NCBI GenBank assembly: GCA_020725645.1
Contig: DYEQ01000076.1
Location: forward strand, 7,206-71,205
Direction: 5' to 3'
From: Candidatus Fermentithermobacillaceae bacterium
GTDB taxonomy: Bacteria > Bacillota > Sulfobacillia > Fermentithermobacillales > DUSS01
Length of the DNA: 64,000 nucleotides
How positions within the stretch are numbered: the first letter of the stretch is position 1; every line of letters starts with the position of its first letter. The notes beneath the pieces were generated by a model. It searched no databases. It had not been told where the DNA came from and was given only the letters and a program-made list of their open reading frames with translations. Positions 2,869 to 39,585 of this stretch are shown here, in pieces. Position numbers and translations under genes: made by a program.

Positions 2869-3312
2869 CTAAGGGAAGCCGGCTTGGCTTGCCCGGCGAA
2901 CGAACAAGCGGATCTGTTCGACAAACCGTCCCAGGTCTCCGAGGTCTTTGCGACATATCTCATACAACTCTTCGGGGGTAACTTGGTGGTACAGGTGGAC
3001 CATCCGATTTCGATAACCGGCCATCTCTATAAGCTTCCCGCTTAGATCCGAATCGACTATTCGCAACTCGCCCAGACCCTTGGCGATCCCCTTGTATTCA
3101 GCGGCGAGATCAACGTGACCGGCTTTGGCGAGAATATGACGTCCTACATCAAACACAGCTTCGAGGCATCTGCGCAGATAGCTCTCACACGCAGCAACCC
3201 TGGTCTTATCCGCCAGAAAGCTATCCCGCGGTACCTCGCAGAGAAGGCTTATCTCTAGAAGGTACTCCACTATAAGCGCCAGGCGCTCTTCGATCAAAGT
3301 GATGTTCAGCAT
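2869..3312 (-). CDS. hepT: HEPN/DUF86 toxin (HepT-type)
   Basis: 147-aa ORF carrying the HEPN R-x4-H-x-Y motif (GYRNRMVHLYH). It overlaps the upstream MNT gene by 7 nt. Confidence 0.8.
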   Translation of the reverse strand: MLNITLIEERLALIVEYLLEISLLCEVPRDSFLADKTRVAACESYLRRCLEAVFDVGRHILAKAGHVDLAAEYKGIAKGLGELRIVDSDLSGKLIEMAGYRNRMVHLYHQVTPEELYEICRKDLGDLGRFVEQIRLFVRRASQAGFP

Positions 3313-3737
3313 GGCGAAACCTCGTCGAGAACATCCTGTAAAAACCGCCTCAGGAACGGAGCAAAGTCAGCCGCCCGTCGCAGCACCCGCATTTCATACT
3401 CGTCCCGCTTTTGTTCGCTTGACTGATAGACGCATATGCCCTTGATGGCCTCGGCCTGGAAAACGGAGTGCTGCTCCTCGAGAAAAACAAGGTCCAGCCT
3501 CAGGGGTTTGAAGAGTTCTTCCAACTCGTTGTAAAGTCTCGCGTAAAAGGAAGGACGCTCTGATGGTTCCGGAAGAGGCCCGTCAGTTACCACGCCCACG
3601 TCGATATCGCTCAGGGGGTCATCCTCCACCACTTTTTCCCCAGCGAGGATCTGAACCCCGGCGCGAGCGCGGGAACCGAACAGGTACACCAGCGAGAGCC
3701 CATATCGTTCGCAGATATTCCGCAACGTGCTATCCAT
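3306..3737 (-). CDS. mntA: minimal nucleotidyltransferase antitoxin (MntA-type)
   Basis: 143-aa ORF with the LFGSRARG...SDIDVGVV nucleotidyltransferase signature. It sits upstream of and overlaps the HEPN gene, the classic MntA-HepT arrangement. Confidence 0.8.
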   Translation of the reverse strand: MDSTLRNICERYGLSLVYLFGSRARAGVQILAGEKVVEDDPLSDIDVGVVTDGPLPEPSERPSFYARLYNELEELFKPLRLDLVFLEEQHSVFQAEAIKGICVYQSSEQKRDEYEMRVLRRAADFAPFLRRFLQDVLDEVSPC

Positions 3738-8311: not shown

Positions 8312-8645
8312 TGCGGGCTTCTTTACCGGATAGTCCTCTCAAATAGAACAGTTTCGCCCTACGCACCCGGCCCCTCCTCAAGACTTCGATCCGGTCGATT
8401 CTCGGGGAGTGCACGGGAAAGGTCCTTTCGACCCCGACTCCGTAAGACACCCTTCGCACCGTAAAGGTTTCCCGGACTCCGCCTCGCTGACGCGCGATGA
8501 CGGTACCCTCAAAAGGCTGAATACGTTCGCGGCCCCCTTCGATGACCTTGTAGTGCACCCTGACGTAATCACCCGGCCTGAACTCGGGGATATCTTCCTT
8601 CATCCCTTCGCGTTCCACCAGATTTACGAGATCCATTCCGATCAC
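8289..8645 (-). CDS. rplS: 50S ribosomal protein L19
   Basis: The blocks [34 protein letters not shown]...[44 protein letters not shown] are conserved L19 sequence. Confidence 0.9.
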
Positions 8646-8738
8646 CCTTTCAACTTCGAAGCTCTAATTCGACTGTTTATCCACCTTGTGTGCCAGTGCG
8701 GGTTGAACTCCGCATCTTATCCGCTACGATTCAACGCC

Positions 8739-10731: not shown

Positions 10732-12048
10732 TCAGAACGGGAACTTCCCCGCCTTGTCCATGGAAGAAAGCTTGGACATCATCTTCCGGGCTTCGGAGAA
10801 CTGCTTCAGAAGTCTATTGACATCTTGCACCGAGGTTCCGCTTCCCTTAGCTATCCGCTTCTTCCTGGAACCGTCTATGATCTCCGGTCTTCTTCGTTCC
10901 TCCTTGGTCATGGACTGGATGATAGCTTCCACGCGCGTCCAGTCTTTGGGATCTACGTCGATGTTCAGTTTCGCCCGGGAGAAGCCGGGGATCATCCTCA
11001 GGATATCCCCGATGGAACCCATCTTCCGCATGTCCCTCATCTGCTCGAGGAAATCGTCCAGGGTAAACTGGTTTTTCCTGAGTTTGCGCTCGAACTCCCG
11101 CGCCTTCTCCTCGTCGATGGCTTCCTGAGCTTTTTCGATGAGGGTGAGTACATCGCCCATCCCCAGGATGCGCGAGGCCATTCTGTCCGGATGGAAGACC
11201 TCGAAATCCTCGAGCTTTTCCCCCTTCGAAGCGAACAAGACCGGCTTCCCCGTAACCTTGACGACGGATAAAGCGGCGCCGCCCCTCGCGTCGGAGTCAA
11301 GTTTGGTGAGGATTACCCCGGAAATCCCCACCTTCTCGTCGAACACCTGGGCGACCTTGCATGCCTCCTGACCCGTCATGGCGTCGACGACCAGGACCTT
11401 TTCCTGTGGCGCGGAGACCGAGGCGATTTTCCTGGCTTCTTCCATCATGTCTTCGTCGATTTGCAACCGTCCGGCGGTATCCAGGATAACCACGTCGTAG
11501 CCTTGCCTCCTCGCCTGAGCTATCCCCGCTCGGGCGATGTCTTCAGCTTCTGAATCGCCTCCCAGCGTGAAAAACCCTGCGCCGGCCTTCTGAGCTACGA
11601 TTTCGAGCTGCCTCTGAGCTGCCGGCCGCCAGACGTCGCAAGAAACGCACATCACATGCTTGCCCTGCTTTTTGAGGAGAAGGGCAAGCTTCCCGGCCGT
11701 CGTGGTTTTGCCTGAGCCCTGAAGTCCCAGCAGGAGGATTACCGCAGGAGGAGAACCGGTGAGGTTGAGCCGGCGCACATCCTTTCCCATTATGGCCGCA
11801 AGTTCTTCGTATACGATCTTGATTACCTGTTGAGCTGGGGTGAGGCTGGAAAGCACCTCTTCACCAACAGCTCGCTGGCGTATGTTCGAGATGAATTCTT
11901 TGACCACTTTATAGTTGACGTCGGCTTCTAGTAAGCTAAGCCTGACTTCCCGCAAAGCGGCATCAACGTCAGCTTCGGTGAGTTTTCCTTTTCCCCGCAG
12001 CTTTCTGAATATATCCGAAAGTTTCTGGGTCAGCCCCTCAAACGGCAC
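10732..12048 (-). CDS. ffh: signal recognition particle protein Ffh (SRP54)
   Basis: 438-aa ORF with an N domain, an SRP GTPase domain (LLLGLQGSGKTTTAGKLA, DTAGRL, TKLDSDARGG) and a Met-rich M domain (IQSMTKEERRRPEII). Confidence 0.95.
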   Translation of the reverse strand: MPFEGLTQKLSDIFRKLRGKGKLTEADVDAALREVRLSLLEADVNYKVVKEFISNIRQRAVGEEVLSSLTPAQQVIKIVYEELAAIMGKDVRRLNLTGSPPAVILLLGLQGSGKTTTAGKLALLLKKQGKHVMCVSCDVWRPAAQRQLEIVAQKAGAGFFTLGGDSEAEDIARAGIAQARRQGYDVVILDTAGRLQIDEDMMEEARKIASVSAPQEKVLVVDAMTGQEACKVAQVFDEKVGISGVILTKLDSDARGGAALSVVKVTGKPVLFASKGEKLEDFEVFHPDRMASRILGMGDVLTLIEKAQEAIDEEKAREFERKLRKNQFTLDDFLEQMRDMRKMGSIGDILRMIPGFSRAKLNIDVDPKDWTRVEAIIQSMTKEERRRPEIIDGSRKKRIAKGSGTSVQDVNRLLKQFSEARKMMSKLSSMDKAGKFPF

Positions 12049-19965: not shown

Positions 19966-20601
19966 ATGGACATGAATCCCAGAGACATCGATGAATACAG
20001 GGTCCTGCGAAAAATAGCTGCGCTCGTGATGGAAAACCCGAACATCACCGTACGGGAGATCGCTCAAAAACTTGGCTATGCCGAGGAGAAGTCCGTTTAT
20101 TACTGGCTTGAGAAAGCGAAATTCGCGGGAATCAAGGATTTCAGGAAGAGCGTGCTCACTGGAACAGTTCCGCCCGGCTTTTTTGCCGGCGACAGGGAAT
20201 CGAAGACACCTCTCAAGGACGTGACGCCCCTCAAGGACGCCCTGAGTTTGCTGGATCTCCCCGTTCGAGAACATTTTCCCATGAGAGCGCCCGGGGAGAG
20301 ACCTCTATCCCAATATCTTCCCGTCAGTTTCGCTCCCGGATCCTACCTGGTCCCCGCTCCAGAAGACCTGCCGGCGGGCTTGATACGCAAAGGTGATCTC
20401 CTTCTGATTGACGCTTCGTCGCCCGTCCAGTCCGGGGACTTAGTGATGGGCGTGTCGGAGACCGGAGAACCGCAGGTTCTGCGGAGATATGTAACCCCCC
20501 GGGGCGGTGAGGTTTTCGTGAACCTGGCAGACCCGGGCAATACGACCTCGCCGGCAACGGTGGCAGGGAAGATCATCCTGCTAATCAGGCTTGCACCGTA
20601 G
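19966..20601 (+). CDS. HTH transcriptional regulator with a C-terminal LexA/S24-like beta-domain (catalytic Ser/Lys dyad not evident)
   Basis: The N-terminal winged HTH reads REIAQKLGYAEEKSVYYWLEKAKFAG. The C-terminus resembles the S24 fold (GDLLLIDASSPVQSGDLVMGVSETGEPQVLRRYVTPRGGEVFVNLADPGN...GKIILLIR). The canonical GDSM Ser is replaced (PMRAPGE) and an Arg sits where the catalytic Lys is expected (VLRRY). Confidence 0.45.
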   Translation: MDMNPRDIDEYRVLRKIAALVMENPNITVREIAQKLGYAEEKSVYYWLEKAKFAGIKDFRKSVLTGTVPPGFFAGDRESKTPLKDVTPLKDALSLLDLPVREHFPMRAPGERPLSQYLPVSFAPGSYLVPAPEDLPAGLIRKGDLLLIDASSPVQSGDLVMGVSETGEPQVLRRYVTPRGGEVFVNLADPGNTTSPATVAGKIILLIRLAP

Positions 20602-37241: not shown

Positions 37242-37289
37242 CTCTAAAGTCCCCCTTTGCTATCGAACGTTTCACCGGAACACCGCCGC

Positions 37290-37487
37290 GCTACGGGTCC
37301 TGTGCGAATTCCTCCGGTTAGAACACACGTGCTCTCAGCCGCTCATCCAACACACCTACTGCGCAACGAGTCCTATGCGAATTCCTGCGGTTGGAATACA
37401 GGCCCTCTCACGCTTTACTCAACACACCCACGGCGCGACAGGTCCAAAGCGAATTCCTCCGGTGGGAACTTGCTATAATTACCGGGT
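37290..37487. repeat. Three tandem ~72-bp direct repeats upstream of gpr (core tgcgaattcctccggtt[a/g]gaa); the last copy ends in an extended -10 TGCTATAAT
   Basis: I aligned the three units by eye: 37290-37364, 37365-37436 and 37437-37487 (a partial third unit), at roughly 75% identity. TGCTATAAT lies at 37471-37479. Confidence 0.7.
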
Positions 37488-37699
37488 CAGGCCTGGTGAG
37501 CTCTTCGCAATGGATCCCATGGGAATTTCCCCGGTTGCAACTTGGCCGGTGCCGGCTGGCCCCGGGCACAAACGTCTCTACCCAGAAACTTCCTTGGAGC
37601 ACCTCCGGAAGGTTAGATCTTTAAACTGGAATAAGCTTCACCTACCGGGAGAAAGATTAACCGCGAAAGTTCACGGCACGTCTTTTCGGGGGGATCGCT

Positions 37700-38665
37700 A
37701 TGGCAGCACCACCCATCGCGCAGGACCAGTGGCAGGACCCATGGAGCGAAAGAACAGATCTGGCCCTGGAGAGAGCGGTCATGGCTCAACAGAGGATGGG
37801 TCAGATCCCAGGCCTTCTCACCACCGAGGACTCCACCGATGGGATTAAAATCACCAGGGTCAAGGTTACGACCCCGCAAGCAGCACAAGCCGTAGGCAAG
37901 CCTCCCGGCAATTACGTAACGGTTGAATGCCCCGACTTGCGGTTTCGAAGCAGGGTTACCTTGAAGAAAGTTGCAGATGTGGTAGCATCCGAGCTTACAG
38001 CTATGGCGGGTCTTCCCAGGCAAGGTGACGTCCTCATAGTGGGGCTGGGCAACTGGCAAGCTACACCCGACGCCCTCGGACCGAAGGTCGTTTCCCAACT
38101 CATGGTCACGCGGCATATCAGAGAGTTCATTCCTCAGGAGCTGGGAGGCAGGCTTTACCCCGTGGCCGCGATCTCTCCCGGTGTCTTGGGGATTACCGGG
38201 ATAGAGACTATAGATATAGTAACAGGGGTTGTCCGGCAGATCCGTCCGGAACTGGTGATAACGGTAGATGCCCTTGCGGCAAGAAGCGTTTCCAGGCTCA
38301 TCACCACCATTCAACTGGCAGATACGGGAATCCAGCCGGGTTCGGGCGTGGGAAACCGGCGACCCGGCATAAACCAGGAGACTCTCGGAGTACCGGTTGT
38401 GGCGATAGGGGTTCCGACGGTGGTCAGCGGAGCTTCCATAGCCGTCGAGGTTTTAAACGGGTACTTCCAAAAGTATAACCCGCACGCGACAGCGACCGTC
38501 GATTCGGTGATGGACTTCCTCACCGCGGACCTGCATGACCTCATGGTTACACCGAAAGATATCGACGTGGAAATTCTGGAAATGTCCAAGCTCCTGGCGG
38601 GCGTCTTAAATCACGCGACGCAACCGGCTGTTAGCGAAGAAGAAATACTGGACTATCTCCAGTGA
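37700..38665 (+). CDS. gpr: germination protease (spore protease GPR, SASP-degrading)
   Basis: GPR family blocks are present: RTDLALERAV near the N-terminus, VLIVGLGNWQATPDALGP, ISPGVLGITGIET, TVDALAARS, QLADTGIQPGSGVGN and VPVVAIGVPTVV. Confidence 0.8.
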   Translation: MAAPPIAQDQWQDPWSERTDLALERAVMAQQRMGQIPGLLTTEDSTDGIKITRVKVTTPQAAQAVGKPPGNYVTVECPDLRFRSRVTLKKVADVVASELTAMAGLPRQGDVLIVGLGNWQATPDALGPKVVSQLMVTRHIREFIPQELGGRLYPVAAISPGVLGITGIETIDIVTGVVRQIRPELVITVDALAARSVSRLITTIQLADTGIQPGSGVGNRRPGINQETLGVPVVAIGVPTVVSGASIAVEVLNGYFQKYNPHATATVDSVMDFLTADLHDLMVTPKDIDVEILEMSKLLAGVLNHATQPAVSEEEILDYLQ

Positions 38666-38778
38666 CCATTTCCGCTCCTCTCGCTTGTAGATGTGCACTA
38701 TCGTGCAGGTCACACCCAGTGTTAGCCTACGTGTAACGACTGCGGGAACCGGGCTCACGCGGTTCCACAAACACTCCG

Positions 38779-39220
38779 GTGCAAAACTGGTTGGCACTAA
38801 GGAATGAAAATCTCCGGGTAGTGCAAACCATGTTGGCACCGAGTGGCCCGACAAGTGCCGCAGTGCAAAGTTGGTTCGCACTGAAGGCTCAAAACCTCCG
38901 GGCAGTGCAAACCACGTTCGCACTATGAGGCCCGACAGGCGCCCCAGTGCAAGCCTCGTTGGCACTGAGGAGTGAAAACCTCCGGCCTGTGCAAACTACG
39001 TTGGCACTACGCGGTCCGACACACCCCCAGTGCAAACCTGGTTGGCACTAAGGAGCTAAAACCCCCGCACAGTGGAAACCACGTTGGCACTATGAGACCC
39101 GACAAACGCTCCAGTGCAAACCTGGTTGGCACTAAGGGCTGAAAACCTGTCCGCAGTGCAAACTACGTTGGCACCGAGTATTTCCAAAGACGCGCCAATG
39201 CAAACCGGAGTTACGGGCAC
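38779..39220. repeat. Phased array of 10 (plus one degenerate) imperfectly palindromic 19-bp cores, GTGCAAAC-NNN-GTTGGCAC, on an exact 42-bp period, organised as 5 x 84-bp units with two alternating spacer classes
   Basis: Core starts are at 38779, 38821, 38863, 38905, 38947, 38989, 39030, 39072, 39114, 39156 and a degenerate one at 39198. Spacings are 42 bp, with one of 41. Spacer class A is ~TAAGGAnTGAAAAyCTCCGGGyA and class B is ~yGAGnGGCCCGACAnnnGCnCCA. Confidence 0.9.
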
Positions 39221-39342
39221 GGCCAAAAAAGGACGCGGGGTAGCAAATCGCCACCCCTAATCCTCTGAACAACTCTGGTTCCTGACCTTCTTCCCCGACT
39301 AACGACTTCTTGTGGAATGGGTACAGTTAACCTTACACCATG

Positions 39343-39585
39343 CTACCTCGCCTGAGGTCCGGGAGCCGCTGGGAATCTGCCACTGGCGAGGCTCTGCTCG
39401 GCCAGCTCGATCATACGCCGCACCATGTGACCGCCAACCGCTCCGCAGGTCCGCGACGGGATGTCGCCCCAGTATCCGCCCGGAGGCTGAATCCCGAGCT
39501 CGTTGGCCACTTCATTTCTGAACGCGTCGAGCGCCTGACGAGCTTGCGGTACAACTGCGATGTTTCTCTTCTGACCGGTTCCCAC
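39343..39585 (-). CDS. ssp: small acid-soluble spore protein, alpha/beta type
   Basis: RNIAVVPQARQALDAFRNEVANELGIQPPGGYWGDIPSRTCGAVGGHMVRRMIELAEQSL matches the alpha/beta-SASP signature. The start is GTG at 39585, with RBS AAAGGGAGGTGA. Confidence 0.85.
   Translation of the reverse strand: MGTGQKRNIAVVPQARQALDAFRNEVANELGIQPPGGYWGDIPSRTCGAVGGHMVRRMIELAEQSLASGRFPAAPGPQAR

Follow-up and report, generated by a model that had tools for sequence, protein, structure and literature searches.

An array of dyad-symmetric 42-bp repeats between gpr and a SASP gene as a probable locus of a dispersed repeat family of Fermentithermobacillaceae

The convergent gap between the spore germination protease gene gpr and an alpha/beta-type small acid-soluble spore protein (SASP) gene of a Candidatus Fermentithermobacillaceae bacterium holds a long array of dyad-symmetric repeats. 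The gap lies within a stretch of 64,000 nucleotides, here called the window (GenBank assembly GCA_020725645.1, contig DYEQ01000076.1, positions 7,206 to 71,205 of the forward strand), and coordinates below count from its first letter unless another locus is named. The array is somewhat more probably than otherwise one locus of a lineage-restricted, dispersed, non-coding tandem repeat family of Fermentithermobacillaceae, whose building block is an 84-bp dimer and whose units would have been seeded, amplified, and recognized by a protein. The family is best called a new REP-like (repetitive extragenic palindromic) or minisatellite-like variant, found in one small lineage of thermophilic Firmicutes. 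In unrelated intergenic regions, its units stand alone, in a 2-unit element, or in arrays of 10–18, and both the presence and the copy number of the units differ between close relatives.

Ten cores of the form GTGCAAAC-N3-GTTGGCAC, each with zero to two mismatches, run along the plus strand of the window from 38779 to 39174. They start at 38779, 38821, 38863, 38905, 38947, 38989, 39030, 39072, 39114, and 39156, so that all steps measure 42 bp save a single one of 41 (38989 to 39030). A pattern search of the window returned 16 core matches, both strands counted, where 0.05 were expected, and none of 100 shuffles reached 16. Each 19-bp core is followed by a 23-bp (once 22-bp) spacer, and the spacers belong to two alternating classes, a TAAGGAxxGAAAACCTCCGGG-like class A and a TATGAGGCCCGACAxxCGCCC-like class B, with identities of 57–68% within a class versus 32% between the two. 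The ten 42-bp units accordingly make up five 84-bp a+b super-units, and Tandem Repeats Finder reports a period of 84, 4.7 copies, and 78% matches. An initial annotation, made from the letters alone, had already described the core positions, the 42-bp step with its lone 41, the spacer alternation, and the 84-bp super-unit; the pattern search reproduces the first two, and the spacer identities and the Tandem Repeats Finder period the others. All cores face the same direction, and the asymmetry between A5 and G4′ is never inverted. On reading of the sequence, a degenerate eleventh unit, ATGCAAACCGGAGTTACGGGCAC, terminates the array at 39198–39220 of the plus strand.

Comparison of the same gap in relatives reveals how recent the array may be. 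Homologues of its Gpr assign the window to Fermentithermobacillaceae, and an exact look-up of the protein itself gave no record. In the window, the gap measures 677 bp and holds the 10 units. A Logan contig (L118) whose Gpr is 97% identical has a gap of 338 bp with 2 units, followed by the same degenerate end copy that closes the window array. At 93% Gpr identity, the metagenome-assembled genome Bu31 (GCA_014896535.1; L119/L120) has a 205-bp gap with 0 units, and at 90% a second Logan contig (L124) has an 82-bp gap, also with 0 units. The two L118 units match units 1 and 10 of the window, which together with the shared end copy fits the gain or loss of internal blocks; the end copy itself, common to both arrays, must be older than their difference in copy number. 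Judged from these alignments, the gpr–SASP array appears to be a recent, lineage-restricted addition that changes its size by whole blocks. The non-repeat segment from the gpr stop to the first unit (38666–38778, plus strand) aligns to L118 and not to L119 or L124, and is thus common only to the sole relative at this gap that also carries units. A role for the array in connection with gpr and the SASP gene is not supported, as close relatives do without it; absence from relatives, an outcome which the initial annotation had itself raised, is what Bu31 and L124 display at this gap. In the more distant Ca. Fermentithermobacillus carboniphilus (L121, CP062796; Gpr identity 76%), the gap has 0 units and instead holds a creatininase-family gene at 11026–11952 of that record, which marks the gpr–SASP gap as a variable spot in the family.

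The unit is by no means confined to this gap. In a scan for the core pattern covering one genome per species, clustered cores were found, among the matches listed, only in Fermentithermobacillaceae. Bu31, devoid of units between gpr and its SASP gene, carries at least 51 of them in three arrays with the same core and 42-bp register as the window array. The first (L045, 1500–2255) contains 18 units in the interval from glpX to a SIMPL/DUF541 gene and is antisense to both; the second (L003, 5216–5960) has 18 units between genes for glycerate kinase and the YuaJ thiamine transporter and is sense to both; and the third (L128, which includes L083; 8009–8614) has 15 units between a major facilitator superfamily (MFS) transporter gene and tRNA-Leu/4HBT. 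In another family member (L074), a single unit whose core is perfect stands alone between hemerythrin and PHP genes. All six unit-bearing loci are intergenic. Polymorphism recurs at the glpX–SIMPL gap, which spans about 1480 bp with 18 units in Bu31 and 165 bp with 0 units in L125–L127, the three places examined among 11 contigs carrying a 97%-identical GlpX. No leader or trailer is common to arrays at different loci, the 38666–38778 segment has no similarity to array flanks elsewhere, and no neighboring gene is conserved across the arrays, whose neighbors are chromosomal housekeeping genes (gpr, SASP, recG, glpX, SIMPL, glycerate kinase, YuaJ, MFS, and tRNA-Leu). The initial annotation had considered a dispersed family lacking phasing. 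Dispersal is indeed seen, at unrelated Bu31 loci, while the 42-bp register is kept across them and therefore belongs to the family rather than to the gpr–SASP locus.

Outside the family, a literature search for the core sequences gave primer coincidences only, and scans of viral and Joint Genome Institute (JGI) metagenome sequences with two-core patterns gave 0, 0, and 0 matches plus one unrelated-looking contig, L123 (VAPF01014416.1, 1–1277). This AT-rich 1.3-kb metagenome contig bears at least 12 tandem 41–42-bp units at about 760–1277 of its minus strand, each with a perfect GTGCCA-N7-TGGCAC dyad; the spacer is conserved and includes GGAG as well as a sigma-54-like TGGCAC-N5-ATGCA. This array stands directly upstream of two small open reading frames (ORFs), each with a terminator. 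L123 and the window family have the outer hexamers and the period in common, and homology and convergence are both possible. Short tandem repeats unrelated to the family also occur near the Bu31 arrays, at L045 2434–2600 (14 bp × 12), L003 3876–4041 (12 bp × 14), and L128 ~8630–8720 (16 bp × ~6); close relatives (L125) have just one copy of the 14-bp repeat.

Family statistics were compiled from 63 units at the five array loci, with the solitary L074 unit left out, and they expose a sharp division between conserved arms and drifting spacers. The arms are 83–95% identical among units and carry 1.3–2.0 bits of information per position, against 32–38% identity for the spacers, where 27% is expected at random, and 0.1–0.5 bits. 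Conservation drops markedly at the closing pair and at the three central bases, save that the center is A or T in 61 of the 63 units. The spacing, meanwhile, is held rigidly: of 58 steps, 51 measure exactly 42 bp and 56 fall within 41–43 bp, with occasional values of 41, 43, 64, and 72 bp. Nearly all units score better, or appear only, in the GTGCAAAC...GTTGGCAC direction, and the cores have CCCA as their 5′ flank and (T/C)(G/A)(A/G)G as their 3′ flank. Along the arrays the center base alternates between T and A, at 9 of 9 steps in the window, 14 of 14 in L003, 13 of 14 in L128, and 5 of 14 in L045. Outside L045 this amounts to 37 of 38 steps, even though the loop bases beside the center vary almost freely. 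The T, A, T, A alternation points to an ancestral building block consisting of the 84-bp a+b dimer, that is, two 19-bp near-palindromic cores in direct orientation, 42 bp apart. Pairing between cores a and b was considered as the cause of the alternation and rejected, since the positions flanking the loop are not consistently complementary.

What is conserved in the arms seems to be their sequence rather than their capacity to pair. The initial annotation had each core fold into a 7-bp hairpin. The dyad stands, and the stem comprises eight positions interrupted by one conserved A•G non-pair and is marginally stable: a single-core hairpin is predicted at −6.6 kcal/mol (RNA) or −5.0 (DNA) at 37 °C, in neither case surpassing shuffled sequences. 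Of 52 units, 41 have the A•G non-pair, which occupies the fifth stem position and has seldom been repaired. Covariation, evaluated on a 10-pair structure made of the 8-position stem and two flanking pairs, is weak, with 76% of cells paired versus 74.7% in shuffles and with 10 of 500 shuffles reaching the covariation score. Within the 8-bp stem, G•U (12) does not exceed A•C (10), so that neither strand is favored as the folded one. Extension of the stem by the two flanking pairs was rejected on account of mixed pairing at columns 4/24, where the first of them is AU in 19 cases, GC in 10, GU in 5, and unpaired in 18. For the 84-nt units, RNAalifold pairs core a with core b around spacer A in a long hairpin reminiscent of a REPIN (a REP doublet forming a hairpin). 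Direct neighboring cores can still pair in this manner because the core is nearly palindromic, and the long hairpin draws on the same invariant bases, adding no independent covariation. Weak covariation with no strand bias, then, argues for conservation of sequence rather than of pairing, and since missing pairing is not restored, recognition by a sequence-specific factor is suggested. The cores are probably recognized by such a putative protein, either as duplex or as hairpin, in the service of the host or of the repeat itself.

This contrast between arms and spacers also bears on whether the array could be a minisatellite evolving in pure neutrality, with slippage or unequal crossing-over multiplying an 84-bp segment and with cores that resemble one another through descent and gene conversion. 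Bacterial minisatellites, or variable number tandem repeats (VNTRs), include the mycobacterial interspersed repetitive units (MIRUs) and the boxB modules of pneumococcal BOX elements. The window family shares with them intergenic tandem units of 40–100 bp, occurrence at several loci, and strain variation in copy number and presence (10, 2, 0, and 0 units at the gpr–SASP gap; 18 vs. 0 at glpX–SIMPL), as well as the company of other, unrelated copy-variable tandem repeats in the same intergenic regions; the higher-order 84/168-bp structure is likewise in keeping with neutral amplification. A 19-bp dyad core that stays near invariant while the rest drifts and the length is held at 42 bp, however, is atypical of a plain VNTR. 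Across contigs and genomes, 16 arm positions stay the same although the spacers there have come close to random divergence. Under descent alone, arms and spacers would decay to an equal extent, and conversion between loci would homogenize the spacers too, so neither accounts for the pattern. Moreover, the more distant L074 genome retains its lone unit with the core perfect. Pure neutrality is accordingly improbable as a full explanation.

Conversely, the conserved dyads might be read as a phased array of host sites. In that reading, a hypothetical dimeric DNA-binding protein would occupy 10–18 dyads spaced four helical turns apart on one face of the DNA, forming a nucleoprotein filament that might organize the nucleoid, act as a centromere-like or condensin-loading pad, serve as a titration sink, or constitute a gyrase site akin to BIME-2 (BIME, bacterial interspersed mosaic element). 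Several of the features described above would suit this arrangement: base-specific conservation is strong in two outer half-sites, with the central 5 bp free save for the W center; pairing is not selected at the A•G position, and G•U and A•C betray no strand bias; and the 42-bp register persists in 51 of 58 steps despite near-random spacers. It is this register, together with the T/A alternation at the core center, that keeps the reading in play as a minority view. The host lineage is thermophilic, and single hairpins would be marginal for a thermophile. The architecture also resembles the sopC locus of the F plasmid, where SopB binds a 16-bp inverted repeat in each of 12 direct 43-bp repeats (PMC3177203). 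The window family comes very near to this geometry, with 10–18 direct 42-bp repeats, a dyad in each, and the sites on one side of the helix. Unlike sopC- or iteron-type plasmid repeats, however, the family is chromosomal and sits at several unrelated loci, with no parA/parB-type, rep, or other conserved gene adjoining any array, and blastn searches of plasmid and phage collections gave no match to the array. Its presence or absence at orthologous loci of close relatives, with 0–18 copies, further argues against a position-specific chromosomal role. Weighing these points, a phased host array is rather unlikely. Its more specific form, in which the arrays are chromosomal sopC-like landing pads with a putative dimeric protein on both a and b cores and with the 42-bp length and the dimer under selection, is to be regarded as unlikely. 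Were it true, the arrays would constitute an undescribed phased nucleoprotein element in a thermophilic spore-former, engaged in nucleoid organization, protein titration, or relief of supercoils between transcription units, and strain polymorphism would reflect turnover of a quantitative trait and not dispensability. Of the protein-binding role put forward in the initial annotation, the conserved dyads and the rigid 42-bp register thus hold up; a link to the function of gpr or the SASP gene finds no support. The candidate binder named there, an "HTH/S24-like" (helix–turn–helix) product of 19966–20601 on the plus strand, matched no Pfam family at E ≤ 1e-5.

The position of the array relative to its neighbors invites a different question, namely whether the repeats act in RNA. 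The gpr gene occupies 37700–38665 of the plus strand (PF03418, matched on homologues and on the gpr genes of L118 and L119) and the SASP gene 39343–39585 of the minus strand (PF00269). ORF positions and both families thus uphold the earlier description of the array as lying 3′ of two convergent genes. The right boundary of the array-bearing segment is the intrinsic terminator of the SASP gene on the minus strand, a hairpin GGGGTGGCGATTTGCTACCCC followed by a T-run at 39227–39257; the hairpin is conserved in L118, L119/L120, and L124, though the latter two have no units. A terminator scan found none on the plus strand in the interval from the gpr stop to the first unit, and the array would therefore, if transcribed, belong to the 3′ untranslated region (3′UTR) of gpr, with the SASP terminator shielding its other side. 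Hairpins in such a transcript might stabilize the mRNA by blocking 3′-exonucleases, act as a sponge for an RNA-binding protein, or be processed into 42- or 84-nt RNAs in the manner of type III antitoxins. Compensatory changes (AAGC/GCTG, AAAT/ATTG, and CTGC/GCAG), the covariation score rarely reached by shuffles, and the long hairpin of the a–spacer–b segment are congruent with this possibility. Against it stand the overall weakness of the covariation and the parity of G•U and A•C in the stem. Orientation to the flanking genes also varies, being sense in the window and L003 and antisense in L045, and in the window it is the minus strand, behind a terminator, that folds better. The arrays have no common promoter or leader. 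A search of the window with Rfam 15 yielded nothing at gathering thresholds, and a permissive scan near the array retrieved only a chance-level fragment of a long noncoding RNA (E = 2.1). Type III antitoxin (ToxI-like) arrays consist of tandem direct repeats of ~36–45 nt and are similarly foldable, but the window family differs from them in its far higher copy numbers, its inconsistent orientation, and its want of a co-oriented downstream toxin gene. No toxin-like ORF follows any array; what lies 3′ is the converging SASP terminator, the opposite-strand SIMPL gene, or the thiamine transporter gene 570 bp away. An RNA-level element is on these grounds quite improbable, and the structured tandem noncoding RNA suggested by the initial annotation finds little support.

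Regular spacing, a conserved repeat, and more variable segments in between might also evoke a degenerate CRISPR array (clustered regularly interspaced short palindromic repeats) or a protein-coding repeat of 14 residues, the latter encouraged by ORFs of 198–222 codons that run through the L003 array. CRISPR was rejected: the repeat is short (19–21 bp, where CRISPR repeats measure 23–55 bp and are nearly identical) and variable with a free 3-nt center, the spacers belong to recurrent classes, there is no common leader, and no cas genes were found in the annotated neighborhoods of the arrays. Coding fares no better, as all six frames contain stops in three long arrays, the window array among those with stops in every frame, and the 41-, 43-, 64-, and 72-bp steps break the frame. 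The repeat contains few stop codons, and the L003 ORFs are a by-product of that scarcity. On the minus strand of the window, the 119-codon ORF at 38606–38965 runs over three array units and the 3′ end of gpr, has no counterpart as such in array-free relatives, and is almost certainly spurious; the initial annotation had listed it and likewise thought coding unlikely. Taken together, a degenerate CRISPR or coding repeat is extremely improbable. The earlier exclusion of CRISPR, tRNA, and rRNA is thus in agreement with the absence of CRISPR features and of any Rfam match in the window. Promoter arrays were rejected as well. A TGGCAC suggestive of sigma-54 is present, but by inspection no TTGC follows at N5 on either strand, and a scan for sigma-70 sites found none within the array, in accord with the earlier view that it is not a simple promoter. 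To our knowledge, the consensus sequences of the LexA/Cheo box, FapR, parS, NBS, ram, and CIRCE do not fit in spacing or sequence, an observation of value as a lead only.

The nearest relatives in kind may be REP sequences and the BIMEs and REPINs they compose (PMC3116915; PMC3733652). Like these, the window family is made of short imperfect palindromes with an 8-bp stem and a 3-nt loop, is strictly extragenic, is species- or lineage-specific, and pairs two slightly different units into dimers, with linkers that alternate between two types. Tandemly reiterated, evenly spaced clusters are known for REPs and REPINs, as are REP dimers of two slightly different units (PMC3116915; PMC3733652), and the window arrays share the even tandem spacing and the differences in copy number between strains. 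Even the conserved unpaired purine pair at the fifth stem position has its counterpart in the GTAG-24 family of Pseudomonas aeruginosa (PMC3733652). The REP survey lists no family from Firmicutes, the phylum of the thermophilic window host (PMC3733652).

The assignment to a dispersed, REP-like family must nevertheless reckon with several observations that weigh against it. The GTAG/CGTC tag by which REPs are defined (PMC3733652) is absent from either strand of the core flanks. The window family is exclusively head-to-tail, an arrangement rare for REPs, whose dimers are mostly head-to-head or tail-to-tail and whose orientation in BIMEs alternates from unit to unit. These two points keep the family out of the classical REP superfamilies. 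Most classical REPs occur as singlets or doublets, whereas no scattered singlets or doublets occur here in about 140 kb, the one singlet being that of L074; a unit-profile search of the relatives' loci (74 kb) and of the window beyond the array (~63 kb) found no further units. No transposase or REP-associated tyrosine transposase (RAYT) was found in the Pfam-scanned parts of the window and the loci, with no genome-wide search made. At the gpr–SASP gap, no target-site duplication or precise empty-site junction can be defined, since array-free relatives offer nothing to which the gpr-proximal flank aligns. Finally, the 42-bp step in 51 of 58 cases and the center alternation in 37 of 38 outside L045 look like constraints, for which a selfish or neutral repeat would have no obvious need.

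The most economical course of events for the dispersed family can be outlined from these comparisons. In the recent ancestor common to L118 and the window organism, a unit would have been seeded in the gpr–SASP gap. The array may then have been resized by unequal recombination or replication slippage between in-register blocks of 84 bp, sometimes 168 bp. Occasionally, a unit or dimer may be seeded at a new intergenic site, and array edges would decay. The cores would be kept by a sequence-specific protein, conceivably a trans-acting mobilizing enzyme or a host DNA-binding factor, as for REP and BIME. Other copy-variable tandem repeats abound in the same intergenic regions, which fits this model of seeding, amplification, and decay. 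The model also agrees with published accounts of tandem REP/REPIN clusters and of REP heterodimers (PMC3116915; PMC3733652). At the gpr–SASP locus, the array would be dispensable for expression of gpr and the SASP gene, and may at most add hairpins to the gpr 3′UTR, upstream of the shared terminator.

Two further features of the window deserve mention. Upstream of gpr, at 37288–37540 of the plus strand, lies a second, unrelated and degenerate tandem repeat with a period of 72–73 bp and the core GTCCTGTGCGAATTCCTCCGGTTAGAAC. It has three clear copies and a weak fourth in the window, two copies in L118, and none in Bu31 (L119). This repeat is copy-variable too, and both flanks of gpr therefore carry strain-variable repeats. 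Far from the array, at 2869–3737 of the minus strand, adjoining genes for a HepT-like RNase and an MNT/Pol-beta nucleotidyltransferase form a pair of the HEPN-MNT toxin–antitoxin type.

For annotation, the consequence is that the array should not be labeled a regulatory or centromere-like element of the gpr–SASP sporulation locus, since close relatives do without it. Rather, a REP-like or minisatellite-like family is documented in a phylum where such elements have scarcely been described, and its architecture is unusual in being all-direct, strictly 42-bp-phased, and built from an a/b dimer unit. The 84-bp dimer offers a ready probe for the binding protein or mobilizing enzyme, if one exists, and the arrays provide natural strain-typing (VNTR) markers for the Fermentithermobacillaceae of thermophilic digesters and coal-fire vents.

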